Assembly (NCBI GenBank): GCA_010015585.1
Contig: ML975156.1
DNA length: 64,000 nucleotides
Strand: one strand, 5' to 3'
Source: Eremomyces bilateralis CBS 781.70
Lineage: Eukaryota
Position numbers and translations under genes: made by a program. Below the pieces are notes generated by a model, which saw nothing but the letters and a program-made list of their open reading frames with translations, had not been told where the DNA came from and ran no database searches. Below, one piece after another: positions 18,575-50,419 of the stretch; position 1 is the stretch's first letter; every line of letters begins with the position of its first letter.

Positions 18575-20207
18575 CTACAGCTTCGCCCCCAGCGCCTTCG
18601 AGACCTTCAACTCCTGCCTCACCGCTAAATCCGAAATAATCTCCTCACTCCCCCCACCCACAGAGTACATCCTCAGATCCCTACTAATCTGCTCGACCTG
18701 CCAACCCACCCCCCCTCGCTGATACCCAGCGCCCCCAAGCACCTGCTGCGCCTCCCTACACGCCAGCTCCAGCAACCTCGTGCCATTGACCTTGGACAGC
18801 GCCATGCGGCTCGCCAGCTCCGGGCCCGACCACCCTCGGCGGCTGGCGTGGTAGGCGATCTGCTCCAGCCACGCGAAGTTCGACTCTACGCCCCGCGCGA
18901 TGGTGGCGAATTTGTCACGGATGATCTGGTTGCTTATTAAGGGCGCGCCGAAGGTTTCACGGTCTTGCGCGTACTTCAGGGCCGTGGTGAGGCAGGTGCG
19001 CGCCTTGCGGTTGGAGCCGACGGACATGAGAAAGCGCTCTTTGTTGAAGTCTGGTGTAAGGTGTTAGCATGCGATGGGTGGAGGGAGGAAACAGAGGGAA
19101 GGGGGATGGGGACGGGGCGTACTTGTCATAAGGGTGAGGAAGCCCTTGTTTTCTTGCCCTATTATGTTCTCGACTGGCACCTTGACGTCCTCGAGGTAGA
19201 CCCACGCACTATCTGGAGAAACGATCAGTACCATGCGCCACGACTCGAAAGCCTAAAAGTAGGAACGCTTGTCATACTTGCTGCGTTCGCACCGCTGTTG
19301 TAGATCTTCTTGGCCGAGAAACCGGGCAGATCGGTAGGGATCACCAGCACGGAGACGCCGCCCGCGCCAGGGCCTCCGGTCCTCACAGCGGTTGTCATAT
19401 GTGTTGCTTGAAGTGCGCCCGTGATCCATTTCTGTGCGTAACCATCAGCGTCCACACTGTGTTTGAATGCCCGAATATCTTTCTGAAAAAGTCTCTGCCC
19501 ACCTTTGTCCCCTTCACAATATAGAATTTCCCATCTGGCGTCTTCCTCGCCGTCGTCCTCAGATTAGCCAAATCCGAGCCCCCAGACGGCTCCGTCGCAC
19601 CGAGGCAGAACTGCGTCTCGCCCGTAAAGATGCCTGGCAGCCAGGCCTGCTTCTGCGCCTCCGTGCCGAAGGCGATGATGGGTGGGACGCCGATTTTCGT
19701 GCCACCTCCGGAGAGGGCAGTCAGCACGCCGGACTCAACGCGGGCGGTCTCGTCGGTGAGGATGAGGTGGTGGAAGATGTCCCAGTCTGTGGAGTGGAGT
19801 GTTAGTGGTGTTTTCCTTTTCAAGCTTTTGAGGAATTGCTGGGTTTCCAATTTCATACCATCGGCTGAGATGCCGGCAGGAAGAGAAGTCCCCGGACGGT
19901 ACTTTTGCGGGATGCTCTGGAGTACGAAGCCTGCGCTGACGAACTTCATAGTTTCCTGGGATGCGTGTCAGCCGCCGAGTCTGGTTGCTTTCGCGGTGGA
20001 ACTACGTTTGCGGAGGCATACCTCTTTTGGGACACATCCGGATTCCTCCCACTCCTGCGCGTACGGAAGAACATTCTCGTCGATGTAGTTGCGGGCCCAG
20101 GCGGCCAGCTTTCTGTGCGTGGAGTTGTAGTAGGGCGAGTCGAGGATGTTGTACCAGGCTGGCTCGGCCCAAGGGCTGAGCTCGCCGAATGTTTCTTTTG
20201 GAGACAT
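18575..20207 (-). CDS. Acyl-CoA dehydrogenase with C-terminal PTS1 (AKL)
   Basis: PWAEPAWY..SPYY, FCLGATEPSGGSDLA, KWITG, QVLGGAGY, VGGGSEEI; ends GAKL; multiple introns. Confidence 0.93.
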
Positions 20208-20500
20208 GGAGAAGGGAGTGATGACAGAGAGTAGAGATAAAGAAACGAAGAAAAACAATAAGAATCGCTGAGAGAGAGTGGAGGTGGTACGTTACGGCTG
20301 GTAATACTATAGGACTCACCTCATTTTTATGCTTGGCTATACTAGTTTATGCTATTCTAGAATAGTGCAGCTAGTTAGTACATGACATCATTAGAAGATC
20401 TCTGACATTCTTTGACCACCCTGTTGTTGTTGCATTTCAAAACTTAGGAGGCATAGACGGTGCACGTTATGAGGGCGGAGCTAACAGCGATAAGTATTCC

Positions 20501-20518
20501 TGTCATCTTTTTATGACG
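20501..20518. promoter_or_regulatory. Cluster palindrome TGTCA-N8-TGACG (ACAD/esterase divergent promoter)
   Basis: tgtca tcttttta tgacg. Confidence 0.7.
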
Positions 20519-20914
20519 AGCCGCGATTACGGGTTTGGTCGCTTATCCTTTAGCTGCAGGTGCCCCTGTACTAGCTTCCCCACAACGTCACACCAACCCA
20601 TGTACGCGGTACGTACCCCGCAAAACGTCGAGACATGCAAACGAGTAAACAATGAGCAAATCAAATCAAATCTGTACGGAGTATGGATACAACGGGAAAG
20701 ATAAATTCTCACATAGTTAACTTATGGTACACGAACTAAAATACTGAGGACTATAGATATAGACATGGCTCACGATCTGCAACCACGTCGGGTTTCAATT
20801 GAGATTTATTTTCCTTCAATATGCGCTATTTGACCCGTCACGATAAACTTTATACTGTCTGTTCCAAATAGCAGTTGATTGTCTGTTGCCATTCTCACCA
20901 TTCTCGCCGTAACA

Positions 20915-22261
20915 ATGGCAGAATCCCAATACGACCCCAACCCCAACTTCGGCCAATCCGCCTCCCTCTCCGACCGCCTACAATCCGCCTGGCTGCTCCT
21001 CAGTCTCCCCTTTCACCTCACAACTGCAGCAATCACTCGCCCATTCATGAACACCTCTCTTTCCTTCAGGGAGTACATGAGGCGGGCCCTCGTACGCAAG
21101 TACGGCTCCCATCTCCTCCTTCTCCTCCTTCTTTCACTGCGCCAAAACGCGCCTGTTTTAGAGTTGACGTGCCGATCCTAACGTTTGCCTAGCATTCTCC
21201 ACTTCCCTGTGCTGTCCGTGAGCCGAAAAACAGTCAGTCTAGACCCTGTCAAGACATCCCTGCGCTATAAAGCGCTTTTTGATGGCGGGCACCTCAATCA
21301 GCGTATCCAGCGCGCAGACTTCGCTGGAAACTGGGTCTGCAAGGCCAACTTTGACGGCGGAGCCGACGTCGCAAAGTCAGACATCGTAATCTTTTTCATC
21401 CATGGTACGTCCCCTATGGTACCCTCCTCAACCTCTTCTAAGTCCCCACCCCCGCCATTCTAATCCCCAATTTCAGGCGGCGCGTATGTAACCGGCCACC
21501 TACACCAATACATGCCTCTCCTTCTCCGCCTATCCGAGACCATCTCCGCCACCAGGGGCCTTACCGTCTCTATCTTTGCCCTCGACTACTCTCTCGCCCC
21601 CGAACACCCCTTCCCTTGCCAACTTTCCCAAGCTGCAACAGCGTACACGTACCTCACCACTGAACTAAACATTCCCCCCTCTAACATCGTGCTCACGGGC
21701 GACTCCGCGGGGGGTTCGATCGCGCTGTCACTGCTTACACATTTGCGCCAGCCGAATCCCGGGGTGGAAATGGTGCTGCCGAGGGAGGAAAAGCCAAAGG
21801 CACTGTTCTTGCTGAGTCCCTGGGTTAGCCTGGCGAGTGAGAAGGGGTATAAGGAGAAGGAGGCGAGCGATATATTGCATCCCGCGAGTTTGGCGGGGTG
21901 TGTGCGCTACTTGCTGCCTACTCCTGCTGCCGTTGCAGACGCAGCGCCGTATCTTGAGTTCGCCACACCAACGCCTAGTCGCTCGTGCAACTTTAACGAG
22001 TTGTTGCCTGAGCACGTGTGGGTGTCTGCCGGCGAAGACGAGATTTTTCTGCATAATATTACGAGCTTCGTGGATGAAGCCAGGAAGAGTGGGGTTAAGG
22101 TGGAGTACGAGATTGAGAGTGGGAAATTCCATGATTGGCAGCTTTTTGATAGTGTGCAGAATGCTGGGGTGTTTTTGGGGAAGGAGAGGGGGGCGAGAGA
22201 TGAGGGAGAGATGGAGGGCGTGGAGAGGATTGGGAGGGCAGTTGCGGGGGTTTTTGATTGA
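20915..22261 (+). CDS. Alpha/beta hydrolase (HSL-family esterase/lactonase, Say1-like)
   Basis: HGGAY split by an intron, LDYSLAPE..FP, GDSAG nucleophile elbow, LSPW, terminal His in GKFHDW. Confidence 0.9.
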
Positions 22262-22590: not shown

Positions 22591-24579
22591 CTACAGCTTC
22601 GTCTTCGCGGCGGCCGCCCCCCTCCCCGCCTTCTCCTTCCTGGCGGGCAGCTCACTCCTTTGAATTTTCCCCGTCGGGTTCTTGGGAATCGCATCGATTG
22701 CAAAAACGCCCCCTCTTAGCTTCTTGTACGGGCTCACAATCTTATCCACTGACTCCCGGATGCGTTTCAGCGCCGCTTCACGATCGTTCTGCGCCACGGA
22801 GGACGAGAGCACGACGTAGCCAATTGGAACTTCGGTTTGGCCATCTTCGTGCCAGAGGGCGCAGACGGCTGCTTCTTCGACTTCGGGGTGCGAGGCGAGG
22901 AGGTCTTCGAGTTCGGCGGGGGCGACTTGCATGCTGCAACAGTCAGCTATCTGGGCAGCAGATGGTGGATTGTCGGACTTACCCCTTATACTTAATCATC
23001 TCCTTCTTCCGATCCTTAAACCATAAAAACCCATCCTTATCAATTGATAGTGTATCGCCAGTGCGCAGCCAGCCATCATGGAAGGACTCCTGCGTGCTCT
23101 TGGGGTTATTGCGGTAGCCCGCAAACACGGTGGGCGCCTTGATGAGCGCTTCGCCAGGCTCACCTAGCTTGACGTCATTCATGTTGTCGTCAATGATGCG
23201 CATCTTGCTAAGACTGGTGTTAGAGCGGTGTAGTGAGAGACAGGGGAGGGGGAACGTACACGCCTGGGTAGAGCCGTCCTACGCTGCCTGCTTTCTCTGC
23301 TGAGCGCCGGCCGCGGAGCCCAGCGACGGAAACTTCACTCATGCTACGCCAGACGTTAGAAAATGCTTGCAACACTGCAATTGGAGGACAATTTCTGCTT
23401 ACCCGTAACCCTGCGTAATGCTAACCCTTGGCATGATCTGCTGCAGCCTCTGCACAACCTCGACTTGCAGCGCCGCACCAGCGCACATGAGCGTCTTGAC
23501 GGTCGTCAGGTCGAGCTGATCGATGCGCGGGTCCTTGGTAATCGCCACGGCGACTGCGGGAACCATCCTCATGACCGTGCTGCCGACTTTAGAGCAGGAC
23601 TGGATATACTGGTCGTAGACGAATGCCGGAAGGATGGCGATGTAGTTTCCGAGGAAGGCGGGGATGAGAACGCCGCCCAGGAGACCGAATAGGTGTGGGA
23701 CTGCGCGATGTTAGCATGTTAGTCTTGCAGGGTAACGGTTCAATGGGTGTACGGACAGGGACCGAAGAAGACTTCGCGCGAGTCGGCGTTCGCGTCCTCG
23801 GGATTTGCGGTGCGGTTGCTCAATGCATTGGCAATCATTCCGTAGTGGCTCAGGTGTACACCCTTTGGTTTTCCAGACGTCCCGGAGCTGAAAACAACGG
23901 CAGCCGGGAGGGTGCGGTTGTCGATGTTTGACAGGTCGACTGGCGGAATTGGATTTACGGCAGTCGAGCGGAGATACTTGTGTGGGAACTGAGACCGGTT
24001 AGGTTTTGATTTGGTTGGCGTTTGGAGTTGGACTTCTTACGGCAACCGCCGATTGATTGTCAATGTTGATAATTGGTGCCGAAGGAACGGTCGTATGATG
24101 GTGGGCCACTGTCCTCTCAACGACGCCGCGACGATGAGGCTCCACGACAATTAACTTTGCGGCCGCTACTGAAAGATAATGCCCCAGATCATGTTCCGAG
24201 GTTGCAACATTGATTCCGCTGCTCTACATTAGCAAACTTCATTTCGCGACATCACACCTGAAGAAGCTCACATGATCGTTCCACCAAACCACATCACGGC
24301 ATGTGCCAGTAGAATATAATTTGCCGAGTTTGCAGCGTACACAACTACGGCATCGCCCATCTTTAGGTTGAAAGCATGCACCAATTCGGCGGCGAGCTTT
24401 GCGGCATCTCTACGAAGCCCGCCATATGTAATCTTGCTGCCCTTTGGGTCAATGTCCTCGTAGATGACCTTGTCCGGCGAGATATCATCTGGATTGACAT
24501 CGAGCAGGTACTGACCGAGTGATTTGTTGGTTGGGACCAAATATTCGGGATAAATCGAGCTGTAGATTATTGGTGCCAT
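22591..24579 (-). CDS. Acyl/aryl-CoA ligase (4-coumarate-CoA-ligase-like), C-terminal TKL
   Basis: FSSGTSGKPKGV, GWLRTGD, DRKKEMIKYKG, QVAPAELE, IPKNPTGKIQR; many introns. Confidence 0.92.
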
Positions 24580-24887
24580 GATGTGTGGACGTGTGGTTCT
24601 GTCTGGATGTGCGGAGCAAGGCGAAAAGAAATCAACAACGCAGACAACACTTCAACTCAATATTTTAAAGTAGTGCAGCAGCGCGTTAAGAGCCATGACG
24701 GTAATTGGGCGACATTACATAGTCGCCTCTCCAAGCAGCCGAGACGAACATAATCCCTAGTCAGAAATATCATATCACGGCATCATGGTATAAATGGCAA
24801 CTTGTGCCGTGAACTGCGGTCGTAGTTGCTGGAATGAGTGTAGCATGAGGAGCAAAGTACTAGTATAGACATTGACGCTAGAAAGGA

Positions 24888-25908: not shown

Positions 25909-26982
25909 TCACCCCTTGCCGGCAGCTTGTGTCCTTACAATAACTAGCCAGATTGTTTGCGCAGATAAATTCAGTGGCAAAACCTTTGCTGAGCTACCTT
26001 CTGCGCTCGAGCTAGCCTCTCCACCTGAGGCTGAGGCAGCAGGCTCGTCCGACTCTTTCTTCACGTCTGTAGGAATTTCAGCGGGAAATACGGGCATTAT
26101 CCGTGGCTCTTCGTCGAGTCGTTCGCCTTGGATGTCAACATCTTCGAGAATATCCCTTAGTGCTCTCAGCTGGATACCACCGCTGGCAGACTGCGAGTTA
26201 ACCGTGTTAAGCACCTGTGCAACTGACACCCCAACCAGGTTACAAAGCTCTTCAGTAGTCATCAAAGATAATTGCAGCCCTCTGGAATATAGCCAGTCTT
26301 TATTTGCCGCCGCCGCGTACGCCTCCGCTCGGCCTCGGGGTGTTTGCGGGTTCGCTGCTGTGGTAATCGCGTTACCAGGAAGCGATAGAACCGAGCCAAC
26401 TAGACGAGTAGCAGTGCCCACAGTCAATCTAACTGCTCCACCAATGGCACCTCCAACGACGCTGAGGATATTTCCCTTTTTCGCATGCTTGCCAAGGTCC
26501 TTGACTATTGGTTTGGCGTGATTTACGGTATCTTTGCAGAACTGCTGAGGCACCTTTCCGAGCCCAGCAGCGATATCACCAGCATGGCTGATGGCTCGCT
26601 TCCCGACACGCGCAGTCAAGAATGCGGATATTGTATCCACAAAAGAGTACCAAGTCATCGCTGGGATGCCATGCCTTAACAGCGACGGAGGATAAGCTGC
26701 GAGAAACGGTGATGCCGGATCGGGATATCTCTGGGGTATCGCAATTGGTCTGCGACCGGTGGGAGGAGGTGTATTACCAAGAGGTAGATTTGTAGATGGG
26801 AAGGTGAACGGAGAAGAGACTGTCGGTCCTAGTGGTGCTGTCGATGGCCCATCATTTGATATATTTGCGCTTGGGGATGGACTTTCCACGGTTTCCTGGT
26901 ATGTTGGTAGCTGAGAGTCGTGTTCCTCTTTTCCGCGTGCGACATGCTTGACACCATTGCCGTCATGGCTCATTCCGCCCAT
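25909..26982 (-). CDS. Uncharacterised fungal protein (357 aa, intronless)
   Basis: Long ATG ORF with RPIAIPQ..PFLAAYPPSL..GI motif and Gly/Ala-rich zipper-like centre; resembles BuaE-type proteins from memory only. Confidence 0.75.
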   Translation of the reverse strand: MGGMSHDGNGVKHVARGKEEHDSQLPTYQETVESPSPSANISNDGPSTAPLGPTVSSPFTFPSTNLPLGNTPPPTGRRPIAIPQRYPDPASPFLAAYPPSLLRHGIPAMTWYSFVDTISAFLTARVGKRAISHAGDIAAGLGKVPQQFCKDTVNHAKPIVKDLGKHAKKGNILSVVGGAIGGAVRLTVGTATRLVGSVLSLPGNAITTAANPQTPRGRAEAYAAAANKDWLYSRGLQLSLMTTEELCNLVGVSVAQVLNTVNSQSASGGIQLRALRDILEDVDIQGERLDEEPRIMPVFPAEIPTDVKKESDEPAASASGGEASSSAEGSSAKVLPLNLSAQTIWLVIVRTQAAGKG

Positions 26983-28048: not shown

Positions 28049-28469
28049 CCAGCTTTGCACGTTGCAAAGGTTGTGTTCACCCCAAGGCCTACTTATCATC
28101 CCCTCACACAGCGGCTTGTATTTTAGATCTTCTTTCCTCCTTTGTAGATTGATTCTCGTATATCACGAATCACAGAGTTTGACCTCATCCTTTCGTGCCC
28201 TGATACTCTTATACGATAATATAGTTAATTGTTTATGTATTGTACATATAAGAGTCTTGGGCTGTACGCCCAGACTATTGGTTACGAACTATCGGCTTTA
28301 GAGGCCTCCAACCAAAGTATTCGGGAAGGTGCAGAGGATGGCAAACGTGCATTTAGAACTTCGGGAGGAGAGGCCTTTTTCTCTTCTTCTTCTTTTCTCC
28401 AGTAATTCGATAACGTCCCTACCATTCATAATCCTCATTTATTGTGAACCCTCACAGTACAGAGTATAA

Positions 28470-29321
28470 TCATAGATTAGAAGAGACCCACTGTGGCTTC
28501 TTCTTTGCTGCAAATGCTGCCAGACCAATTCTAGCATTCTCGCCCCTCATCAGCTTCTCCGCCCACCGATCGCCAGTAAGCTGCGTGGCTCTCTCCACGC
28601 TGGCCGTCTCCCAAGCCTCACGGAGTCCCTGCCGGGTGACAAACGTCGCATCCGGAGAGATATCAGCTATATGTCTCGCCAATTTCAGTGCTTCCTCCAC
28701 GACAGACTCGGGCGTCTGCGCAATCACGTTGACCAAGTGAAACCCCTTTGCCTCCTGTGCTGACAGCCTGCGTCCCGTAAGCCCGATCTCAGAGCCGATT
28801 TGCAGACCACAGTTGCGTACCACTCGCGCGAGTCCTCCAGCTCCGGCATATAGGCCGACAGTTGACTCGGGCAGACCAAACGATGCCTTTGGGGATGCGA
28901 CGACAAGATCGCAGTTTAAGCAGATCTCGAACCCCCCTCCAAGCGCAAAGCCATTGATAGCAGCGATGACCGGCTTTTTCCCAAGCCGTCTGCTCAGAGC
29001 TGCAAAGCCTCCTGGTGGGTGCGAGGATCGAGAGACGTTGGTGGATTCTGCTCGCTTCTTGTTCTGCTCGATGAGGTCTTGGCCGGCGCAGAAGGCCTTC
29101 GTCCCGGATCCGGTGATAATGGCGACGCGTAGGTTGGGCTCGTTGTCGAACCACTGGAAGAGGTCGTGCGCTTCCCAGTGTCCGGCTATCGGGATCGAGT
29201 TCATGGCTTGGGCCCTATCGATGGTGACGAGAAGGACATAAGGACTCGGGTACAAAAGCAAGAATGTCGTGGTTTGAGGAGGAAGCGTAGTAAAGTTCTT
29301 GGCTCCACAGTCTTCCGCCAT
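28470..29321 (-). CDS. Enoyl-CoA hydratase/crotonase family protein (SidH/CaiD-like), C-terminal SNL
   Basis: AFCAGQDL, KPVIAAINGFALGGGFE, FGLPE (both catalytic Glu present); intronless 283 aa. Confidence 0.93.
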   Translation of the reverse strand: MAEDCGAKNFTTLPPQTTTFLLLYPSPYVLLVTIDRAQAMNSIPIAGHWEAHDLFQWFDNEPNLRVAIITGSGTKAFCAGQDLIEQNKKRAESTNVSRSSHPPGGFAALSRRLGKKPVIAAINGFALGGGFEICLNCDLVVASPKASFGLPESTVGLYAGAGGLARVVRNCGLQIGSEIGLTGRRLSAQEAKGFHLVNVIAQTPESVVEEALKLARHIADISPDATFVTRQGLREAWETASVERATQLTGDRWAEKLMRGENARIGLAAFAAKKKPQWVSSNL

Positions 29322-29565
29322 TGTAGAAACGGTGCGATGTGTGATCTGTTGTGGTTTACAGTTTGTTACTGTTGTTGAGGGTGGCTCTTTGTATTAAAGA
29401 GGCCTTAAAAACTGGGCAATGCATATATAAATTTGAGGATAAATATGTGACAGGTTTGGGCCCATGAAAATATGCGCCTACATAAAGCGCAGTCGATAAT
29501 AAATGGCTTGGTAGACCACATCTTGTAAATGCCGCAGAAATGTTGCAGAAGTAATAAGATCTGTC

Positions 29566-29583
29566 TGTCACGTATTGATGACA
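29566..29583. promoter_or_regulatory. Cluster palindrome TGTCA-N8-TGACA (crotonase promoter)
   Basis: tgtca cgtattga tgaca. Confidence 0.7.
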
Positions 29584-30176
29584 TTGAGCCTCTTTTCAAC
29601 TAGTTAGATGGTCTTTGGAAAACCGATAGCACAGGCGGTAGGGTGCCTAGCCAACGGGCGGGTACTAGGCGCGGTAAATCGAATATCCGGCGCCCTTGGT
29701 TCGAATTAGGCTCTGTGAGACCTAGTTAAATTAAATGCCTAGTTAGTTGATAGGCAGTCTAGTGCCCGTGGTAGGGCTCTCGAAACCGCTTATATAATCA
29801 AGCCACTCTCTCGGCGAGCAAGAACTTTTGAAATGGAGTGTGCCAAAACTTTATTGACGCACCTCCGTACTCTATCTACAAGCTCACATCATGTCCCAAT
29901 TACTAGCTTTATTCCTTGATGCTAGACTAGCTGAAAATAAGCTTTCCTGCGTAAAGTGCCCGGATTCAGCTACTCTCAATTTTTCTTTGCTGGTCTATCG
30001 AGATCCTCTTCACTTAACCAAACGGTTGTATATTTTATTGGTATACCTGTGATAGAGAAATTAAAAGATGCTTAGGAATTTCAACAAGCTGCGAGCAAAG
30101 GGCACACTTACCCATATCAAAAGGAAAAACGCAGGACCACAATGTATATCTCCTCAAAAGTAGTGTGACAGAGAAA

Positions 30177-30218
30177 ACGTAATCTGCCAGCGAGTCGCCC
30201 AAACCACTGAGTCGCTCA
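30177..30218 (+). mobile_element. Degenerate orphan pogo-type TIR
   Basis: ACGTAATC followed by tandem GAGTCGC-containing units; expected TA target not preserved. Confidence 0.35.
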
Positions 30219-30859
30219 TCTCAACCATGGCCTACTATTATAACTAGAATATCTCGATACCCACGGAAGCTTTTTATTAGTTAGAAAGTAGGCTAGGATC
30301 AATGATTTCTGGTATAGCTATTTGAGGCATTAAATAGGTCTTAACTCGATGTTGTAAGATTATGAAGATGTGCAAGAGTTAAGATGTGTCGCAAGGTGCC
30401 CTGTTGATTCCAATGCCACGCAGCATTCCATTCGCAGCCCATTACCCCTGAGCTAAGCCTAATCAGGACTCCTCAGTCTTGATTTATGTCCCAGTTATCT
30501 TCAACTGTTTTGCTAGTTAGCTAGATCTCTTTTGGGAGAGAATGGGAATAATAGTCAATACCAATTTGCGTTGTGACTCTGGAGTAACTGAGCTTAAGCT
30601 GCGAACGTGCTTAATCATCACCCACGCGTAATGCGACAAGATGTCTCTAGTATTTCGATAGGACTATTTTCTAAAGTTTACAATTGTCACGGCTGCACTT
30701 TTCGTTGCTTTCTAGCCTTGATGGATGGATCCCTTGGCCTGGCGAGAGGTGAAGTATGTTGTGTAACCGTTGATAGCAAATACAAGCATTAGGTTCTTAG
30801 ATATTACATTTGGATTATCTCATTACGACCTTTATAAGAACATGCTCATAACTCGCCGA

Positions 30860-37584: not shown

Positions 37585-37585
<1 letters not shown>

Positions 37586-39098: not shown

Positions 39099-39566
39099 TG
39101 TGTTGAGTTGGATCTTTGTGATAGAGAGAGTTTGGGGAAAATTTTGGGATATTTCGGATAATGAGATAGAGTCAAACAAAACCAACAAGACATGAATAGC
39201 TATCAAGGTTTCGGGCAGCTGAATATTCCCTCTAGATATTGTTTTTCTGCCTTGGCTTCCCTATTCTGAGCTAATCGGGGTTTGATGTCGTCTCACAATG
39301 ATCTAGAGCACTTTGACCAGATTTTTAAGGAATTGTGGTAGTGCTGCTTATAATGAGAAGCGCGCTGTCAGACAATGCTCACTTGAATGTGCATTGGGCC
39401 ATCGACTTATGTTCAAATGCTCGAGTTGTAACACCAAAAACTCTATCTCTGCGATTGCAGGGATATGGGATTCTCTAGCAAATCCAAAAGGGGTTACTGC
39501 TTGCTAGTCTTGCGCTAGCGCAATATGGCTCATGGGGCAATCTCTCACGCTTCCCGCAAGGCGGCA

Positions 39567-39584
39567 TGTCATGCTTTCATGACA
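39567..39584. promoter_or_regulatory. Cluster palindrome TGTCA-N8-TGACA (ADH/thiolase divergent promoter)
   Basis: tgtca tgctttca tgaca. Confidence 0.7.
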
Positions 39585-39893
39585 GAAATATGAATTTACT
39601 TACTTTACACTGTAACATGCATGAGGAATGGAGAATGCTACAGTTTTTGTGGGCGAATACATGGAATAGTAAAGCTGAAACAAAAGCCATGTTCATATGC
39701 GCAATGCACCGAGTATCGGGCACTGTGGCAGCTGCAAAATCAATCTCCCTTGCCCTTAAGGTCCCTTCTTTGCGTAGTTCGTCTTGTCACAAACATTTCT
39801 TTTCATTTAAGATTTTTATGTTTTCAAAATTATCTTCAGAAACCGACGTGTTGCTGACTTGCTCAGTTATTTATATCAGCCAGTTCATTAATA

Positions 39894-41804
39894 ATGGCGC
39901 AACCCGCACTAATTCCTGTTATTGTTGGCGTGGGTGATATCAAAAACAAAAAGTTAACAGTTGAGGATGCGATCGAGCCGATGCAACTAATGCGCCTGGC
40001 AACCATACGTGCTCTTGAAGACACCGGTCTCTCATCCGAAGCTTCGAAACAGTTTCTGGCAAGTGTTGACAGTGTCAGTGTCGTTGCAACATGGACTTGG
40101 AACTATCCTGACCTGCCTGCCCTTCTCTCAGAGAAACTGGGAATAAGCCCTTCTCACAAGACTCTGAGTCCTCACGGCGGAAACTATCCAGTAAGTCTTA
40201 TAGATGAAGCTGCGAGACGGGTTTCGTTGGGACAGAGCCAAGCCTGTATTGTAACCGGTGGAGAGGCCTTGGCTTCCGGTGAGTAGCTGGATGTGATTGA
40301 CTTCTCATCTTAAGAAGCACATTCTAAACCTTTGGCGTTATAGTAAATGCATGTGCTGCCGCGAAGAAATCACCTCCGAGATGGACACCAAGCGATCCAA
40401 AAACGAAAAGTGTGTCTACATCTAAACTGCCAGACACCCAGCAGAGTAGGTCTCAAATGCTAAGCTTCAAAGAAATTTGTGTTCCTAATCTCGTATCATA
40501 GCTCCCGGCTCCGTCCACTCCATTGGGCTACCAATCCACATCTATCCATTATACGAAAACGGATTCCGAGCAAAGCGACGCCAAACACCCGAAGAGAATA
40601 ATGCAGAGTCAGCAAACCTGTACGCAGAATTTGCCCAAGTTGCAGAGCAGAATCCCATGGCTTGGAACTATGGACAACCTGCCAAATCAGCAAAAGAGAT
40701 TGGCACTGTCACCAAAAAGAACAGACTGATATGCTCCCCTTGTAAGGCTCAACTATGGCCCTCACAGGTGATTGCCGCTGACTCCAGTCTCAGATCCGCT
40801 ACTTATGAACGCCTTCAACGCTGTCAACCTTGCTGGAGCATGCCTTTTGACCTCCACCAAATTCGCGACAGAGTTTGGTATTTCTGAGGACAAATGGATC
40901 TATCCGCTGGGCGGCGCAGGGGCAGAAGATAGTGAGAACTGTGTGTTGCGTTTACTTCATCCTTGTACACTCTGTGAGGCCAGGGCTAACCACATGGAAT
41001 CAGTTTGGGAGCGTCTCAACTACTACTCTAGCCCCGCTCTCTCAAACGCACTGGATGCGGCATTAAGAGTTTGTAAACTATCAAAGGACGACATTGAAGT
41101 CTTTGACTTCTATTCATGCTTCCCCATAGTTCCTAAACTCGCATGCCATCATCTCAGTTTGCCTATTGCCAATTCTCCTAAGCCGGTAACCTTTCTGGGT
41201 GGACTAACATCGTTCGGTGGTGCTGGTAACAATTACTCTATGCACGTAAGTTACAATCAGCGGACAATCCCAAAGGCATTCCGCATGATATTGACCATAC
41301 AGTGCAGTCTGTGATCGAAATGGCGCGCGAGTTGAGAAAGGGAGCGCGGCAGTACGGCCTCGTATTGGCAAATGGGGGGATACTCACGAAACACAATGTG
41401 CTCTGCCTTTCCCGCAAACCCCGCAAGGATGGCTCTCGTTATCCCGCAACGAACCCTCTAGCACAGTGGAAACTGGAAGCTGTCATTCCACCAATCGCAG
41501 AGCAGGCAGATGGAAAGGCAATACTTGAGGTACGTGATGAGAGTAGTCTGGATCAATACAATGATTCGAATTGACACGCTTCTAGACATATACCGTCGAG
41601 TTCACCAGGGAAGGGAAGCCGACTCGCGGTCATATTGTAGGATTATTGCAGGGTGGACGTCGCTTTGTGGCCCATCATGGGGACGAAGGTACCCTGCAGC
41701 AGCTTGCAAGTCAAACGAAAGAACAAGTTGGAAGGAATGGGTGGGTGAGGGCTGGAGGCAATGGAAAGAATTACTTTGTGTTTGAAGAAGCGGGACGGCT
41801 GTGA
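39894..41804 (+). CDS. Thiolase-like protein (TLP1-type)
   Basis: PVIVGVG, HGGNYP, TGGEALAS, YPLYEN, FDFYSCFPIVPK, GGLTSFGGAGNNYSMH, LANGG; ends EAGRL; multiple introns. Confidence 0.88.
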
Positions 41805-42258
41805 TGAGTTTTCAATGAATACATATTTCATCCGCAAGACCAACTCGTGCTTTATTTGAAAGTTATATAACTACCGCTTTTTCCAGCATTTGCTTCAGTT
41901 ACACAAATCAACGGTTTAAGAGACCATTGGGAAGTTTTGATCTTACCAGGTAAGAGCAAACGGAGAACTAACAAAAAGAATTGGCCACCAAAATTCCGCG
42001 GAGATACGGATGGTCGCGCAGCGTATTGCGTGTTGAGTTAGGTAGCTGGACCAATGCCTGTGTTAACTTATCGATTTCGACATTGAGGTGGAGATGATAA
42101 CCACATTTTCAAACATAAGAGAGCCGTTCATCAGCTGTCGAATACTCCAACTTGTAATTTCTAACCTAATAAACCACCTCAAGGCTAATTCCACAATGAC
42201 TTCGTCCGCTCTTGTTCTGAAGTAGTTAACTAACTTAGCAGTTAGCCGTCAGTTAGTT

Positions 42259-42280
42259 AAGTCCCAGTAAACTGGGACTT
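42259..42280. repeat. 10-bp perfect hairpin between convergent genes
   Basis: aagtcccagt aa actgggactt. Confidence 0.6.
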
Positions 42281-42352
42281 TACTTTTGGCCCATAATACA
42301 ATCGTGGGTCCCTTGATATCAGCAATTCTGTTAGTTCCGGCATAGAAGAACG

Positions 42353-44398
42353 CTACTTCTTTTCGTCCGTGTCCCTGTCTTTGGCTGCCAGGCCCTCTCT
42401 CAGCTTGATGTCAACCTTCTCTGTCATGAGGTGGCCAACTTCGGCAGTTGAAAACGCCGCCAAACAACCAAGGATACCGAAAGTTATGGATACATAGTAA
42501 ACCAGCTTGAACGCATTGATATACGCCATTTTCATGGCAATCAGTCCAGCGTCCACGACTGACTGTGGCAACGTCCGAAGAATTGCGGCGTTTTTCTCTA
42601 CGATTGCTTCGATGGCTTCCGGCAATTCTGCTTGGGACAGACCGGCGCCAAGCAATGCCTTGGCAATGCCAGGTACAAGATTGTGTCCAATTTTGTTCTC
42701 GATGATGGAGGTGTAAATGGTGGTTGCTAAACATCCGCCAATAGAGCGTGCCGTGATGGCCATGGCAGTAGCGATGCCAATATACTCGTGCTTCTGACCC
42801 AGCTGAACCATGGTCGTAGAACATAGCGTTGCGCCTGTGAGGCCCATTCCCAACAAAACGGTAAGCACCGTGCAGCTGATATTTGTATTGATCCCTGTGT
42901 CCATGTTAGCTGAAGAAATTTTACCGCAAGTGAGCTTCAGAACGGGACTGAAAAATCCAAATGCAACTTACCAACATGGGCTTGAGCGCCGCAACAAGCC
43001 GTGAGGAGCATGGCATAAAGCGTGAATTGATACCTTGCAAATTTCCCCCATTTCCTGAATGCCCAACCGCAGATGGGCGAGGCCAGGACACCGCCGGCTC
43101 CAAGAGCTGTACAATACCAGCCGACCTGGATTTGGTCTTTTGCAAACAACTTCTCGACCATCATTGGCCAAAGCAGGATAGTAGAATAGTATAGCATGCC
43201 GGCCAAAGCGGTCGTGAGAAGGACCATTGTGCAACCTCTAATATTTCCCAGGACAACTGGCGGGAACAGTGCATATTCGAGGCTTGCGTGAGCTTCGTAA
43301 AAGCCGAGAGCGACAAGTGTCAAGAATCCAAGAACGATCATGCATATTGGCCCAGCCGATTTCCTAATTCTTGAGTGAGTTTATTTCTCTCGGACTCATA
43401 ATATTCGGATAAAGCGTTACTCACCATGGGAATTCCGATCCCCCAAAGGTAATTCCGAGAAGGAACAGGGTAAGGCCGGCAGCAAAAAGGAATAAGCCAA
43501 TCCAGTCAAGTTCCTTGAACTGCTGAAACTTCGTTTTCCTTTCAGGATTGTAAAACTGATTGATGGGATGGTAAAAGAGTACAATAAGTACCAAGCCGGC
43601 AATATCGAGCGCAAATGGAATCCAGTAACAGTATCTCCAGCTTGCATGAACGACGAGAGATTTGCCTGTGAGCGGCTAGGTAAGAATATTCCATGACATC
43701 TTTGGATGAGATATTACTTACCAATAACCGCAGCAAAGAGTGACGCTGGTGTCAGAGATACTTGGAAAAGACCCAAAGCAAAGGCTCGCTGGCTTCTTGG
43801 CACGACCTCGGCGAGGCACGACCATGCGAGCTGATGCATCGCTGCACCAAACCCGATGAAGATGCTGGCAACGATGATTGTGCTGACCTCGTGCGCGGTT
43901 GCAGCAACGGCGCAGCCTACCGCGCCAATGGTATTGCCAAGCAGGAGGAAGGTCTTTCGACCAAAGATGTCGCCGAGACGTCCGACAAGAGGCGAAAGTA
44001 CGGCCGCTGAGATGATCTGGGCCGTTGCCATCCAGCTGTACGCCGTGGAGGGGCCTGAACTGGGGATGAGCGGAGGAAAAGGAGCTGCGGTGGCAAATAA
44101 GGCTTACCAATATCGTTGTTGATGTCTCCCAAAACGGCGGAAGCAAGTGAGATGACAAAAACATCGCTCAAGTATCCAAACTGAAAGCTCTGGGACATGT
44201 GTTAGAGGGTGAAAAGATTAAAAAAGATGTACTTACCATGCAAGCCAGGAACTTGCTAAGTGTGAACTTGAAATCCCCATCAGGATAATCTTCAACGACC
44301 TCCTCCTTGTCTTCTTCGAGGGAGGATGGAGACCAGTCGCTCTTGGGCTTCATTCCCATCTCTACATGATCCGTTTCCGCTTTATCGTTTGCAGCCAT
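42353..44398 (-). CDS. MFS transporter, Tri12 (trichothecene efflux pump)-like 14-TM family
   Basis: INNDIG, PLVGRLGDIFGRK, AEVVP, IGIA..RSIGG, AFKLVYYVSITFG; multiple introns. Confidence 0.88.
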
Positions 44399-44620
44399 GA
44401 TTACAAGACAAGATCAAGAGTATATTGCTTAAGAGTGAGAGACGGCGACCAAGTGTTCGTCGATAGTGCTTCTTTACCCCAGATTTGATGTACAGCTAGG
44501 TTAAGTACTCCATACGACTCCACACGTTTCGTTTGGCCAAGCGTCTCCTCCTATCGCTTACCCCTCATTTCCCCAGATTTTCATCCAGCAATTTGGGTGG
44601 ATCGGGGTCGAGAGATGGGC

Positions 44621-44638
44621 TGTCAGGTAACAATGACG
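44621..44638. promoter_or_regulatory. Cluster palindrome TGTCA-N8-TGACG (MFS promoter)
   Basis: tgtca ggtaacaa tgacg. Confidence 0.7.
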
Positions 44639-45821
44639 GAAATGATACTTTCGGTTTTGGACCTTTTCCGTTGACCCGCCACATGGACTAAAGTCTTGGA
44701 GTCCAGCCCTACTTGAAGCCACTAACAGCCCCTCTCCTCTCCACAAATCTGGGCATTATCTGGAGTCAAGAGCGCGAATACAGCGATCGAGTAGCATTAC
44801 CTTCAGTGATGGAGACGAAAGTCTCACCGGTGACCGGTCTTTAGTGACATGCACAGACGATGACCCTTTCCACGTATCGCCTTACCGGTTAGAGTAGTGC
44901 GGAGGTATGACCATGTGGGGGATTCATAGTTTTGGGCTAGTTTAACTGTTTAATGTCCTTTTGCGTGCGGCTAGGCCGCGTGAACAGTAACATGATTAAG
45001 GGGATGAAGAGTGCAGCTCCTGATTTTCAAAAAACAGCCTCAGATCCAACATGCTATCCCTGACATGGCCCACTTAATTTATTCCATTTTAGCGCCGGAT
45101 GGCGCTTAATGGCGCACACTTAGCGTACTAGTAAAGCCCAATCACGAGGCGAACTAAAAATTACTCAGCTTTACGGTCTTTACACCCAAACGCAGCTTCG
45201 ATCCCAGGAGCATCGAAGCAATCAATAATCATGTCGTCTCAACGTATTGTCTAATGTCGTCTATACCGCTCCCATCCGCCCCAGTGGCCTCCTCTATCTC
45301 TGATGATACATCCGACGATGAGCTTGCCACCGAATTTATATCAAGAGCTCGATCCGACGCGACATCCGCTGCAGAAGTGGACCCAGACGTACCAGAGTCC
45401 CCATTACAGCCACCTCCAGGCTCTTCCGCTGGATATCTTAATTGCCCAATTGGGCGCCATGGAGAGGCCTCTTATATAGCTATTGATCCGGCTAGTAAGA
45501 GGCCTCTGGGTCAGACTGGAACTCCATTTCAGAAGATGGAGGGATACGTCTCTTATTACCATAATCCGGAGGCGCTGCTTGATCTCCCGATTAGGATTCC
45601 AGGCCCCATTGATCCTACAGACACCCAAAATGTTCTATGTGGAAATCCTAGCTGTATAGGCTGCGGCATTTCCCATAGTGATGGCCAGTACCTAGATCCA
45701 TTGCTTCATAATCGCCGTCCATCATCCTTCAAATAGCTTATCGAGTGATGGGATCTCCCGCTGGTACTCTTCTCGCAGATATTCCATCAGCGCGTACCGA
45801 CACGGTAAAATTAAAAATATC

Positions 45822-47649
45822 ATGGAGTTGCACCGGAAATTTAAGCTTCCTTACCATCGCCTCCGAACTCGCATCCACGGTCGTCCTTTAAGGAAAACTC
45901 TACGAACTTTTGATATTACTGAAGATGATGAAGAGAGACGAATCCTTAAAGCCGTTGATATATACTGCAGCGGTGATTGCAAAAATATCACAGAGTTGCA
46001 CCAACAAATTGAAGTTCCTTACCATCGCCTTCGAGGGCGCATCAACGGTCGTGCCTCCAATAAAACCCCACGAACTACGAACCGAGCCCTTGATAAAACA
46101 CAGGAGGATGCACTTAAACTATGGATTAAGCAGCTTGATGAAGCTGGCCGACCACCAACCAGTGAAATGGTAACAAACTGTGCAAATGCCATCCTCTGTC
46201 GAAGCCATGATCCTGATCCTGAGACGCCCACACCCGCACCAACTGTCTCTAAGATGTGGACCTACCGCTTTCTCAAACGACTTCCTTCTGAATATGAGCG
46301 AGTTCAGCAGAAAACAAAGGATCCAAAGCGTATACAAGCAGAAGATCTTGGGATTGTGCAGAGCTTCTATGACCACTGGAAAGTCATTATTGAGAGCCAT
46401 CGCATACGCCCATGAAATATATACAACATGGATGAGACAGGCTTTGCAATTGGTCAAGGAAAGGTTGAGAAGGTCATTACTGCCTTTCCAGAAAAAAATG
46501 CAGTCCTTGGAAGTGCCATGTCACGCAAACTGGTCACTGTCATTGAGTGTATTTCTGCTGAGGGTAAACCTACCAATCCCTTTCTTGTTCTACCAGGAAA
46601 GAACCATCTTGAAGATTGGTACAAGGATTGTGGGCTTCCAGATAACTGGATAATTCTGGTCTCTCCTAATGGGTACACCAGTGATGAAGGAGGCTTTGAC
46701 TGGGTTCATCATTTTGAGATTAAGACGCGTCCAGCAACCTCCTGGGAATGGAGACTTCTCTTGCTTGACAACCATGGTTCACACCTGACATATGACTTTC
46801 TCAAGTTCTATGAAGATCACCGGACCATTCCCTTTTTCCTCCCTCCACATATGACACATTATCTTCAGCCTTTGGATGGAGTTCCTTACAGCCTTACCTG
46901 GGATACGAGCAAAAGCCTTCACACCACGCGTTTTACGAGCTGGCCGGTCAAAGCGAGGAGTATGGCCAATTAAACCTGATCTTGTGATTAAAGAGTTGGA
47001 GAAAATCTGTGCGGATGAGGGGCCTGAACTTCAGGATTTTAATGGCTCTGAAGCCGAGTCAGAAGAGCCCCAATCTACCTCTTCTTCACAACTTTCCTCA
47101 CCAAAGTCGATTCGAAAACTCCGCCGCAGCATTGAGAAAGTGAAAAAGAACCTTAATGAGCTGGGTACCTTGCTTGAGGAGGCCTCTCCGTCGCTCAACA
47201 AGCGAATAAATAAGGTGTTCAGTGGCAGCCTTGTTCAAGCCGAGCTTGGCGCGCAGCGAGGAGATGATTTGGATCGCTACTTGGAGGCTAGCCACAAGCG
47301 CAAACGAAAAGATACTAGACGGCAGGTGAAAGCAGCAGGTCCTCTTTATGTTAAGGATGCAAATCGCGAGATTGAAGAGCGGAGGGCGAAGGAAATGAAG
47401 ACTGAGTGGGCGCAACGTGAAAAGCGCCGTGCCCTTGATGCGAAGAAGACGCGTGAGGAGCAAGGAAACAGAGAAGCGGACAGAATTATTGGTGATATTG
47501 CTGCTCTGGCTACTGGACAGGAGGAAAATCCTCTTTATTTTGTAGATACTCAAGGCACGTTGCAGTAATTAATCATTTTGTTGCTTTGTATAGTCCATTT
47601 TGCGTCTTTGCGTGGTTTGCGTCTTTGCGTGGTTTGCCCACCCCGGGTA
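45822..47649 (+). mobile_element. Defective pogo/Fot1 (Tc1-mariner superfamily) DDE transposon
   Basis: CENP-B-type HTH, YNMDETGF, TVIECISA, LLLLDNHGSH, PPHMTHYLQPLD; in-frame TGA at 46413-46415 and a frameshift near 46885; right end with a 17-bp tandem repeat and ..GGG|TA; left TIR not found. Confidence 0.9.
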
Positions 47650-47987
47650 GGTGGGTGCGTAGGGCACGGGTAGTTAACTATCTACTTTTGTAGTTATGAG
47701 ATTCTGGTGCTAATCGAATGTGACGGTATGATTACCCGGAATTGGGCTTAGTGCGACCGGGGGCACAGCCAAAGCGGCCATGCCAAGTGGTATGAAAAGC
47801 CTGTAGCGGATGCTGTAAATGGTCAATGTTTGAATAGGCTCCACATGTACATATACGGCGTCCCAATCTGATCTTCACACTAATTAGTGCGTCCACACAG
47901 TTTGCGGAGGCCTGGAGAAATATACGGGGAATCCATGGGATGCTGGCCTCGAGATGCATGGCTTGGCAACCACCACGCGTCGGTGCT

Positions 47988-48005
47988 TGTCATTAAAATC
48001 TGACA
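47988..48005. promoter_or_regulatory. Cluster palindrome TGTCA-N8-TGACA (BVMO promoter)
   Basis: tgtca ttaaaatc tgaca. Confidence 0.7.
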
Positions 48006-48278
48006 ACGAAAAGGAAATATGACAATACCACACCAACTACTCGAATGGGGAATGAGCAGCACAGGTACAATAAGAAACTTTCGATTGTCATGGTTACCTG
48101 GTATTCACATGTAGTTCGCATAGTATGATGGTAAAACGCTGCTGATTGACTACGGGTGAAAGGAGATATAATAATACAGTGTTGTCAGTTTGAGAATATA
48201 CCTTCGAAACCAACAACTCTTGAACAACTTCTTTGCAGTTTAGCCTACTCCACTTCACTTCTCCCCAACGACGCCAAG

Positions 48279-50419
48279 ATGCCGCATCTTAACGGAAACG
48301 GAATAGCCAACGGCCATGGCATCGATCACCGCAACCTGCCCAGCATTTTCACACCACAGCGCAAATTGAGCGTGGTTTGCATTGGTGCTGGCGCCTCGGG
48401 GCTGCTGTTGGCATACAAGCTGCAACGACACTTTGATGACTTCGACCTTAAGGTTTTTGAGAAAAATCCAGAAATTTCGGGCACATGGTTTGAAAACAGT
48501 TATCCCGGGTAAGGTCACTTCACTCAGGCGCTGCATCTGCCTCCATGATGGGCGAGAAACCAAGTGGAAAGTCACGATGCTAACTGCAATATTTGCAGCT
48601 GCGCATGCGACGTCCCGTCCCATTGCTACACCTGGTCTTTCGAGCCCAAGACGGACTGGTCCGCCAACTACGCGGGTTCCAAGGAGATTTTCCAGTATTT
48701 TAAGGACTTCTCCACCAAGTACGGTCTGGAGCAGTACGTCAAGCTTGAGCATGAGGTTATCGGCGCGATCTGGGATGCGAAGGTGAGCAAGTGGCATGTG
48801 CAGACGAAAGACTTGCGGACGGGGCGTGTGAGCACTGACTCGGCGCATGTGCTGATCAATGCGGGTGGGATCCTGAATGCGTGGAGATACCCTCCAATTC
48901 CGGGTATTGAGACGTTCAAGGGGGAGCTGGTGCATTCCGCCGCTTGGCCGGAGGATCTTGATCTCAAGGGGAAAGTGGTCGGACTTATTGGGAATGGGTA
49001 AGCGGAGACGGCGGCAAACAATATCATGAATGCATATGAGACTGACCGTTGTGTAGATCGTCCGGTATCCAAATTCTGCCTGCAATCAAGGGCGAGGTCA
49101 AGGAGCTCAAGACCTTCATCCGCGAGGCCACGTGGGTTGCTCCGCCCGTGGGAGAGGGGTTCAAAGCCTTCTCGCCCGAGGAACAGCAAAGGTTCGCCGA
49201 GGATCCAGAGTACCATCTCGCGGAGCGCCGGAAAATCGAGGCGCGCATGAACAGCAGCTTCGCGATCTTCCACTCTGAGTCTCAGCCTCAGAAGGACACG
49301 CGCCAGTATATGAAGGGCCTGATGGAGGAGAGACTGCAAGATGAGAAGCTCTCCAAGCTACTAATTCCGGAATGGTCGGTCGGCTGTCGACGATTGACGC
49401 CGGGCACGAATTATCTCGAGTCGCTGAGCGATGATAATGTCAAGGTCGTCTATGGAGAGATCACACAGATCACGGAGACGGGAGTGATTTGTGATGATGG
49501 TGCTGGAGAGCACTCAGTCGAGGTGCTGATTTGTGCGACTGGCTTTGACACTACGTTCAAGCCCCGCTTCCCCTTGATCGGATCGACTGGAGAACAGTTG
49601 AGCACGCTTTGGAAGGGTAAAGCGTCTCGAGTGACCATTCATACTTGCTCACAGGCTAACGCTGGATGGCAGACGACCCGAAAGCATATTTTGGTATTGC
49701 AGCTGACAAGTTCCCGAATTATTTCTGTAAGCATCGAATGGGTCGCCTCCAAATGATGAAAGCTACTGACGCAAATGTAGTTACACTTGGCCCCAACTGC
49801 CCAATTGGAAATGGACCAGTGCTCATCTCCATCGAGGCCGAAATCGAGTATATCATCCAGATGCTCTCAAAGTTCCAAAAGGAGAACCTTGACTCGTTTG
49901 AGGTCAAGACGGAATCAGTGGATCAGTTCAACGAGTGGAAAGACGAGTTCATGAAAGACACTAGTAAGCAATAGGCCCATAACCTTGCGGCGCATCCATT
50001 ATAGCTGACGTTCATGCTTCTTAGTCTGGACCGAGGAATGCCGCTCGTGGTACAAAGCAGGCAACAGCCTCGGAAAAGTTCTGGCCCTCTGGCCAGGCAG
50101 CACCCTGCATTACTTGGAAACGATCAAGAGCCCACGCTGGGAGGACTGGACCTACAAGTATCCAGCCGGCAAAAACAAATACATATACCTGGGTAATGGC
50201 CACAGCGCAGCCGAAGTTCAGCAGAGCGACCTCAGCTTCTACATCAGAAACAAGGACGACTCGCCGGTTGATCCGGTGTTGAAGAAGCCGGCGGTAAAGG
50301 CCAAGATTGAGGCGGTGCAGGGCGCAATTCCAGGAGTGGTCACGTCTGAAGCCTCGGGGCACTTTGGGGGAGTGGAGGCTCGCTTCCCTATAGGAGTATC
50401 TAGCAAAGTCGCAAGTTGA
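48279..50419 (+). CDS. Type I Baeyer-Villiger monooxygenase (StcW/MoxY-like flavoprotein)
   Basis: GAGASG, GTWFENSYPG|CACDVP, FKGELVHSAAWP (FxGxxxHxxxWP), GNG|SSG, GCRR, CATGFD, CRSWYK; several introns. Confidence 0.93.

Follow-up and report, generated by a model that had tools for sequence, protein, structure and literature searches.

The 64-kb stretch of Eremomyces bilateralis CBS 781.70 analysed here (NCBI GenBank assembly GCA_010015585.1, contig ML975156.1), referred to below as the window, is intron-bearing fungal DNA. This analysis concerns the locus at positions 18575-50419 (~32 kb), where genes for a type I Baeyer-Villiger monooxygenase (BVMO), an esterase, an alcohol and an aldehyde dehydrogenase and several CoA-thioester enzymes lie together with a transporter and a regulator, and which is proposed to be a catabolic gene cluster. 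Among the titles listed for papers that mention E. bilateralis, a filamentous ascomycete, none points to this locus. Twelve gene models were obtained by splice-aware modelling, several being refined afterwards, and the limits of the locus are the stop codons of the acyl-CoA dehydrogenase and BVMO genes. The features, with the spans of the Pfam-matching open reading frames (ORFs), are as follows:

18575-20207, minus strand: acyl-CoA dehydrogenase (ACAD), five exons (18575-19050, 19123-19212, 19278-19431, 19503-19955 and 20022-20207), putative start ATG at 20207, C-terminal -AKL; Pfam Acyl-CoA_dh_N/M/1 in ORF span 18578-20291
20915-22261, plus strand: esterase of the hormone-sensitive-lipase family, 393 amino acids, three exons, HGG and GDSAG motifs; Abhydrolase_3 in 21464-22258
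22591-24579, minus strand: AMP-dependent acyl-CoA ligase, 555 amino acids, seven exons, C-terminal -TKL; AMP-binding and AMP-binding_C in 22594-24651
25909-26982, minus strand: DUF4646-like conserved ascomycete hypothetical protein, ~357 amino acids from the first Met, open frame
28470-29321, minus strand: crotonase-type enoyl-CoA hydratase (ECH), 283 amino acids, one exon, C-terminal -SNL; ECH_1 (1.4e-46) in 28473-29393
30860-31998, minus strand: NMO/FabK-like FMN flavoprotein, 358 amino acids, two exons, C-terminal -SKL, covered by RNA contig; Pfam NMO in 30863-32040
32938-34516, plus strand: aldehyde dehydrogenase (ALDH) of class 1/2 type, 487 amino acids, three exons, covered by RNA contig; Aldedh (4.5e-132) in 33033-34513
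34824-36839, minus strand: bZIP-like DUF3425 regulator, 618 amino acids, four exons; DUF3425 (2.3e-9) and a weak bZIP_1 match (0.0031) in 35061-36974
37617-39098, minus strand: Zn-dependent alcohol dehydrogenase (ADH) of yeast ADH/AdhP type, 339 amino acids, nine exons, manual model with RNA cover; ADH_N and ADH_zinc_N in 37803-39030
39894-41804, plus strand: TLP1-type thiolase-like protein, ~490 amino acids, C-terminal -GRL, exons within 40190-40504 uncertain
42353-44398, minus strand: MFS transporter of TRI12/DHA2 type, 583 amino acids, six exons; MFS_1/TRI12 in 42356-44103
45170-47940, plus strand: degenerate Tc5/pogo-type transposon remnant, limits approximate, HTH_Tnp_Tc5 and DDE_1 in broken frames
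48279-50419, plus strand: type I BVMO, 606 amino acids, six exons; NAD_binding_8 and FMO-like in 48150-49753

The window holds 307 stop-to-stop ORF pieces of at least 75 amino acids, of which 300 were covered by the Pfam scan; the seven pieces left out all lie at 58978-60134, inside an 847-residue ABC-transporter ORF (58830-61370). All 11 families that the first-pass annotation had named at this locus were recovered, by Pfam or, for the thiolase-like protein, by PDB entry 4egv and the NCBIfam model PRK08257. In addition, the DUF4646-like gene was found as a twelfth gene, together with the dead transposon. The DUF4646 match itself is weak (E 0.0095), the protein's Atlas feature score is 0.96 against an ascomycete cluster with 101 members, and it has no match in the PDB. 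The statement that a backbone synthase is absent was borne out, as no polyketide synthase, nonribosomal peptide synthetase or terpene synthase domain is present among the 300 scanned pieces of the 64-kb window. The claim that most genes stand in divergent pairs also agrees with the gene models: eight of the 12 genes form four such pairs, namely ACAD and esterase, NMO flavoprotein and ALDH, ADH and thiolase-like protein, and MFS transporter and BVMO, the last of these being split by the transposon.

Seven of the 12 genes are transcribed and spliced, those for the NMO flavoprotein, ALDH, bZIP-like protein, ADH, thiolase-like protein, MFS transporter and BVMO. This is seen in sequencing run X3, whose RNA nature was initially a guess and whose contigs proved to be spliced; it contains 0.69 of the sampled words from 28400-38399. 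The comparison with RNA contigs spanned 30600-50599, from the NMO gene through the BVMO gene, with the ACAD, esterase, ligase, DUF4646-like and ECH genes outside it. Thirteen listed GT..AG introns are skipped by X3 contigs, three in the bZIP gene, five in the MFS gene and five in the BVMO gene, and 12 of them lie exactly as modelled; the thirteenth corrected a donor site. All five predicted introns of the MFS gene and all five of the BVMO gene were thereby confirmed by an RNA contig, and the bZIP protein was rebuilt from its three contig introns. The X3 contigs additionally cover the NMO, ALDH and ADH genes and most of the thiolase-like gene, in a form in which contig depth is unsuited to ranking genes by expression. 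Two further runs gave three pieces of 32-46 nt, spread over three contigs (X4), and none (X5), which is not evidence of absence. The start of the NMO protein is set by a 100% identical public protein (P0261); a protein to which the NMO exon is 100% identical is listed by NCBI under E. bilateralis CBS 781.70. At the esterase and BVMO genes, the public models seem to be wrong: the public esterase protein (P0145, 249 amino acids) uses an internal Met as its start and is missing the exon with HGG, and BVMO exon 3 has no 100% match among public proteins of 327-2000 amino acids, despite the RNA contig that supports the 606-residue gene.

Type I BVMOs are recognised by two Rossmann GxGxxG motifs and the fingerprint FxGxxxHxxxW[P/D]. 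The RNA-supported BVMO model carries GAGASG at position 36, FKGELVHSAAWP at 183 and GNGSSG at 208, which places it in this type. Its best PDB matches are solved type I BVMOs, with no single characterised enzyme clearly closest: exon 3 matches STMO, OTEMO and CHMO at E 1e-9 to 6e-6, and a 73%-identical proxy protein (P0256) matches 7v51/6a37 at 3e-65, STMO at 5e-62, CHMO at 3e-61 and PAMO at 5e-57. The esterase has HGG at 132 and GDSAG at 207 and scores 96.3 bits against Abhydrolase_3, vs a cut-off of 25, and is thus a member of family IV, the hormone-sensitive-lipase family. In the gene models, the catalytic motifs of both enzymes are intact. The ALDH matches ALDH1A3 in the PDB at 1e-114, and one exon of the ADH matches the NCBIfam model AdhP at 8e-8. 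None of these four proteins, ADH, BVMO, esterase and ALDH, ends in a tripeptide resembling a peroxisomal targeting signal type 1 (PTS1). The upper pathway that had been proposed for the locus, from alcohol to ketone, ester or lactone by the BVMO, hydrolysis, further oxidation by ADH and ALDH and activation with CoA, fits the families found.

The consensus of PTS1 is a C-terminal [SAC][KRH][LM]. The proteins of the CoA-thioester module end in -AKL (ACAD), -SKL (NMO flavoprotein), -TKL (ligase), -SNL (ECH) and -GRL (thiolase-like protein), and these five tripeptides are presumed here to be peroxisomal PTS1 signals; two of the five, those of the ACAD and the NMO flavoprotein, are canonical. The ligase matches NCBIfam fatty-acid and acyl-CoA ligase families, every match being below the cut-off. 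The ECH carries the motifs GGGFE and GLPE, and its best NCBIfam matches, EchA19 and PRK08252, are also below the cut-off. Retention of both hydratase glutamates is a mark of hydratases and not of ring openers of the MenB/BadI type. For the NMO flavoprotein, FabK is the best match in both the PDB and NCBIfam.

The thiolase-like protein has no Pfam match above threshold, and its best solved match is PDB 4egv (E 1.5e-19 on one exon). Five of its exons span positions 2-512 of the ~500-residue profile PRK08257, including 447-505, each exon alone staying below the whole-protein cut-off. It has YSCF at 297 and GGL at 326 in place of the thiolase motifs NEAF and GHP, which makes it a protein of TLP1 type; the region of the nucleophile cysteine sits in the uncertain exon. 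In MsTLP1 of Mycobacterium smegmatis (PDB 4egv), the NEAF and GHP fingerprints of thiolases are likewise replaced, and the protein is described as having no thiolase activity (PMC3406046). The E. bilateralis protein shares with MsTLP1 the YSCF and GGL fingerprints and a match to the extra C-terminal domain, and differs from it in being eukaryotic and in ending in -GRL. The protein that the first-pass annotation had called thiolase-like thus bears the MsTLP1 fingerprints and not those of thiolases, and no other thiolase-fold protein was found. No 3HCDH or short-chain dehydrogenase/reductase (SDR) domain, as expected for a 3-hydroxyacyl-CoA dehydrogenase, is present among the scanned ORF pieces of the window.

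Relatives of the BVMO, taken from 120 matches listed, are 65-75% identical and occur in four Pezizomycotina classes, among others in Lachnellula, Phialemonium, Penicillium, Grosmannia, Fusarium, Lophium/Mytilinidion and Lepidopterella; a paralogue within the same species is 53% identical. Several of these host genera live on conifers or resin. Relatives of the esterase (110 matches at E <=1e-10) are much rarer. In Phialemonium atrogriseum, the best BVMO relative among the matches listed (KAK1762780, 73% identity over 556 amino acids) and the best esterase relative (KAK1762781, 43% over 390 amino acids, aligned end to end) have consecutive accessions, indicating that the two genes are adjacent in that fungus. 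In a metagenome comparison of 78 BVMO-centred loci, 33 of them at least 10 kb long, one locus (L002) has an Abhydrolase_3 gene divergently adjoining a 63-66% identical BVMO relative. In Grosmannia clavigera, the BVMO and esterase relatives share one 2.34-Mb scaffold. Public proteins of 749-1411 amino acids combine BVMO and Abhydrolase_3 (P0028, P0131, P0134 and P0144 from Aureobasidium melanogenum) or BVMO, Aldedh and adh_short (P0013 from Zalerion maritima), and these fusions are probably merged neighbouring genes, a hint that such genes are adjacent. The esterase part of the Aureobasidium proteins and the ALDH part of the Zalerion protein were considered as orthologues of the genes studied here and ruled out by identities of 27% and 23%, respectively.

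Two further metagenome loci show what else surrounds BVMOs of this kind. In L001 (1-16000; BVMO 61% identical), the BVMO gene is surrounded by genes for an ALDH, an epoxide hydrolase, AtuA (a family of acyclic terpene utilisation), a CoA-transferase of family III (CoA_transf_3), two SDRs and two DUF3425 proteins, and in L003 (1-8300; BVMO 58%) by those for an SDR, CoA_transf_3 and AtuA. Around the closest metagenome BVMO relatives, no synthase was found within 10 kb on either side. From their gene content, the L001 and L003 neighbourhoods look catabolic, synthase-free and terpenoid-flavoured, and they look like a second, different type of fungal BVMO cluster. The proposed upper pathway is strengthened by both observations, the adjacency of BVMO and esterase genes in other fungi and the catabolic-looking neighbourhoods of the closest BVMO relatives.

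Within the locus, genes for cytosolic-type and peroxisomal-type proteins are interleaved. Three divergent promoters each couple one gene of either type, namely ACAD with esterase, NMO flavoprotein with ALDH and thiolase-like protein with ADH, and the BVMO and esterase genes lie toward opposite ends of the cluster. Gene-poor stretches of 4-5 kb, at 14300-18500 and 50500-55700, bound the cluster on both sides; no Pfam match and, by a simple gene model, no convincing gene was found at 14.3-18.5 kb or 50.5-55.7 kb. The transposon interrupts what would be the divergent promoter of the MFS and BVMO genes, both of which are still transcribed. Its transposase (45696-46970) is disrupted twice, by a stop codon in frame (46413-46415) and by a switch of frame near 46855. 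The depth over the transposon in DNA run X1 is 445-660, vs ~240 nearby, which marks it as multi-copy, and 45941-47941 has next to no RNA depth. Neither a terminal inverted repeat nor a signature of repeat-induced point mutation was found in it. Two smaller repeats lie in the cluster: a dispersed repeat of ~38 nt (30601-30638; DNA-run depth ~950) just 3' of the NMO gene, with several different loose ends on both sides in X1 and X3, and a (CAT)n microsatellite of 12.7 copies (37552-37590) just 3' of the ADH gene.

Taken together, the locus is best read as one functional metabolic cluster, most likely degrading or detoxifying a ketone or secondary alcohol that is plausibly alicyclic or terpenoid, a reading to which a probability of roughly 0.55 is given. 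It is based on the presence of 11 enzyme, regulator and transporter families within 32 kb without a backbone synthase, and further on transcription and splicing, the peroxisome-type endings, the interleaving and shared divergent promoters, the adjacency of BVMO and esterase genes elsewhere and the neighbourhoods of BVMO relatives. In the scheme that we infer, in its reactions, step order, compartments, co-regulation and substrate class alike, the Zn-dependent ADH would form a ketone in the cytosol, after which the BVMO would insert oxygen to give an ester or lactone, to be opened by the esterase. The freed hydroxyl or aldehyde would be oxidised to a carboxylate by ADH and ALDH. The acid would then be activated by the acyl-CoA ligase, and inside the peroxisome the CoA ester would be acted on by the ACAD, the crotonase and the FabK-like flavoprotein, the last of which would probably reduce or dehydrogenate a C=C bond of the CoA thioester. 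The TLP1-type protein may take an unspecified part in this module, and general enzymes of the peroxisome, whose genes would lie elsewhere, would stand in for the missing 3-hydroxyacyl-CoA dehydrogenase and thiolase. Regulation of the pathway likely falls to the bZIP/DUF3425 protein, and the MFS protein would move substrate or product.

The bacterial model for this scheme is the chn/dca route of Acinetobacter, which runs from alcohol through ketone and BVMO lactone to hydrolysis, oxidation by ADH and ALDH to an acid, formation of a CoA ester, and the ACAD and hydratase steps. At the level of families, ADH (here a Zn-dependent medium-chain enzyme), BVMO, hydrolase, ALDH, ACAD and enoyl-CoA hydratase co-occur at the locus and match this order. 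The locus differs in having a Zn-dependent ADH instead of the SDR ChnA, a single ADH, a FabK-like flavoprotein and putative peroxisomal sorting. Of the lower half that the first-pass annotation had likened to the dca genes, the activation, ACAD and hydratase steps are represented, with an AMP-dependent ligase instead of a CoA-transferase; a 3-hydroxyacyl-CoA dehydrogenase and a protein with thiolase-type fingerprints are both lacking among the predicted products. This half of the analogy is therefore incomplete.

The idea that a fungal version of this bacterial route would be new does not hold, as a precedent is available in the pine-infecting fungus G. clavigera. Its terpene-responsive cluster of ~30 genes is described as holding BVMOs, an ADH, an acyl-CoA ligase and beta-oxidation genes, the limonene BVMOs being CMQ_6956 and CMQ_7007 and the ligase, CMQ_6959, being induced 1107-fold on monoterpenes (PMC3680317, PMC4368105, PMC8120277, PMC12628601). 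The two clusters are alike in these gene types and in the absence of a backbone synthase, that of G. clavigera being monoterpene-induced as described; the comparison is by description of the cluster and not gene by gene, and no orthology is claimed. Unlike what direct correspondence would give, the closest G. clavigera protein to the BVMO, and the only one among the 120 matches listed, is EFX00491/XP_014169973 (69% over 550 amino acids) and not one of the limonene BVMOs (XP_014176117, XP_014176168).

Three other systems share parts of the chemistry. The limonene/carveol route of Rhodococcus erythropolis DCL14 uses a monocyclic monoterpene ketone monooxygenase, an epsilon-lactone hydrolase, CoA activation and beta-oxidation (PMC4097962). 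This is the same chemistry as proposed here, and BVMO relatives elsewhere adjoin an epoxide hydrolase and SDRs, as such a route would need; on the other hand, the route is bacterial, no epoxide hydrolase is present among the scanned ORF pieces of the window, and the esterase is only ~30% identical to monoterpene epsilon-lactone hydrolases named as such by JGI. For the lower module, the actinobacterial HIP (steroid rings C/D) genes include FadD3, FadE30-33, IpdC and EchA20, where IpdC is FabK-like and acts on a CoA thioester (PMC5380842). The unusual combination of CoA ligase, ACADs, FabK-like flavoprotein and crotonase is shared, the likeness to IpdC being at the level of the FabK family, and this precedent, with its alicyclic CoA thioesters, counts in favour of the preferred reading (PMC5380842). 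The locus differs in that its crotonase keeps the glutamates of GGGFE and GLPE and in that IpdAB is not present. Finally, VidF, VidP and VidH, a fungal BVMO, esterase and dehydrogenase, are reported to cleave a methyl-ketone side chain in demethoxyviridin biosynthesis, through Baeyer-Villiger oxidation followed by ester hydrolysis and dehydrogenation (PMC5943271). They resemble the combination found here in their function and belong to a biosynthetic steroid cluster described with six P450s, of which there is none at this locus.

Several observations weigh against one catabolic cluster. None of the 78 BVMO-centred metagenome loci holds the whole cluster, and none holds a relative of the ACAD, ECH, NMO flavoprotein, thiolase-like protein, bZIP protein or DUF4646-like protein. 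Conservation is seen for the BVMO-esterase pair only, which here sits 26 kb apart. Among 6-8-mers counted over nine upstream regions, none rose above the null maximum of 200 dinucleotide shuffles. Transcription in X3 was seen without known growth conditions, so it does not demonstrate induction by a substrate. Three of the five tripeptides of the CoA module (-TKL, -SNL and -GRL) are non-canonical. The NMO family is broadly conserved, with 55-63% identity in most Aspergillus and Penicillium species, and the NMO gene may therefore be a general one that is not specific to a pathway. The esterase matches the remote, bacterial epsilon-lactone hydrolases named by JGI at 60-71 bits, vs 76 bits for ordinary solved esterases. 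In addition, an efflux-type MFS protein of the TRI12 type and a DUF3425 bZIP protein are more typical of secondary-metabolite clusters.

This last point leads to the alternative that survives best, possible but unlikely, in which the locus is a biosynthetic cluster without a backbone gene. A fatty-acid, sterol or terpenoid precursor would be tailored and shortened by Baeyer-Villiger cleavage, hydrolysis and peroxisomal, beta-oxidation-like steps, giving a small secreted metabolite that is exported by the TRI12-type MFS protein and controlled by the DUF3425 bZIP protein. Peroxisomal CoA enzymes do occur in some toxin clusters, both the TRI12/DHA2-type transporter and the DUF3425 regulator are present, the genes are transcribed in a run without a known inducer, and the VidF/VidP/VidH trio provides a biosynthetic use of a BVMO, esterase and dehydrogenase (PMC5943271). 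However, there is no synthase or cyclase domain in the 64 kb, the closest BVMO relatives lie among ALDH, SDR, epoxide hydrolase, CoA-transferase and AtuA genes with no synthase within 10 kb, and the ALDH, ACAD and hydratase indicate oxidation to CoA esters instead of the building of a molecule.

A composite origin, in which a conserved detoxification set of BVMO, esterase, ADH and ALDH would merely lie beside general peroxisomal CoA genes (NMO flavoprotein, ACAD, ECH, ligase and TLP1-type protein) serving other substrates, is considered improbable. In its favour, BVMO and esterase are the only members observed side by side elsewhere, the NMO family is near-universal in Eurotiales, and no common promoter word was found. 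However, the two sets are interleaved and three bidirectional promoters pair one gene of each, BVMO and esterase, as the conserved partners, enclose the region, and the gene-poor stretches delimit it on both sides. A chance neighbourhood of unrelated metabolic genes is very improbable: fungal genomes hold many paralogues of each of these families, but nine enzymes of one chemical logic with a regulator and a transporter fall within 12 consecutive gene slots, for which a rough estimate, not computed from the genome, is far below one expected case per genome.

The preferred reading remains degradation or detoxification of a ketone or secondary alcohol by one cluster. In a more far-reaching version of it, which is speculative and rather doubtful, a eukaryote would break down alicyclic or terpenoid ketones by a pathway coupled to the peroxisome, where, once the ring has been opened by Baeyer-Villiger oxidation, the FabK-like and TLP1-type proteins perform CoA-thioester steps that are beyond the canonical beta-oxidation enzymes.

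Beyond the gene-poor stretches, other transport and catabolic genes are found. In the left stretch the GC content is 0.44; in the right one the GC skew is strongly positive, and a 14-nt tandem repeat occupies 51415-51492. Upstream, an amidase (9324-10952, minus strand), an isochorismatase-family hydrolase (10946-11611, minus strand) and a purine/cytosine-type permease (12583-14220, plus strand) lie at 9324-14220 and possibly form a small catabolic unit. To the right of the cluster are an ABC ATPase piece (55734-56483, plus strand), a transporter of the SLAC1/TDT family (Mae1-like, dicarboxylate-type; 56686-58045, minus strand) and the large ABC transporter of 847 amino acids (58830-61370, minus strand).

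The cluster is real and probably catabolic, and would be a new example of a known fungal cluster type and not a new principle; what is most original about it is that a peroxisome-tagged module contains TLP1-type and FabK-like proteins. Fungal catabolic clusters have been mapped much less than biosynthetic clusters, and finders centred on synthases miss them. The locus offers a compact transcribed set made up of a BVMO and a partner esterase together with candidates for a regulator and for a peroxisomal module, and with it a route to the natural substrate of a widespread, uncharacterised BVMO clade (65-75% identical across four Pezizomycotina classes), as well as a chance to learn the eukaryotic roles of TLP1-type and FabK-like proteins. 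For biocatalysis, too, the enzymes may be of interest. If the peroxisome-coupled role of the FabK-like and TLP1-type proteins were true, the TLP1 family would gain its first physiological role, and IpdC-type chemistry a counterpart in fungi. What could be gained is one more example of the kind and, possibly, new chemistry in the lower pathway.

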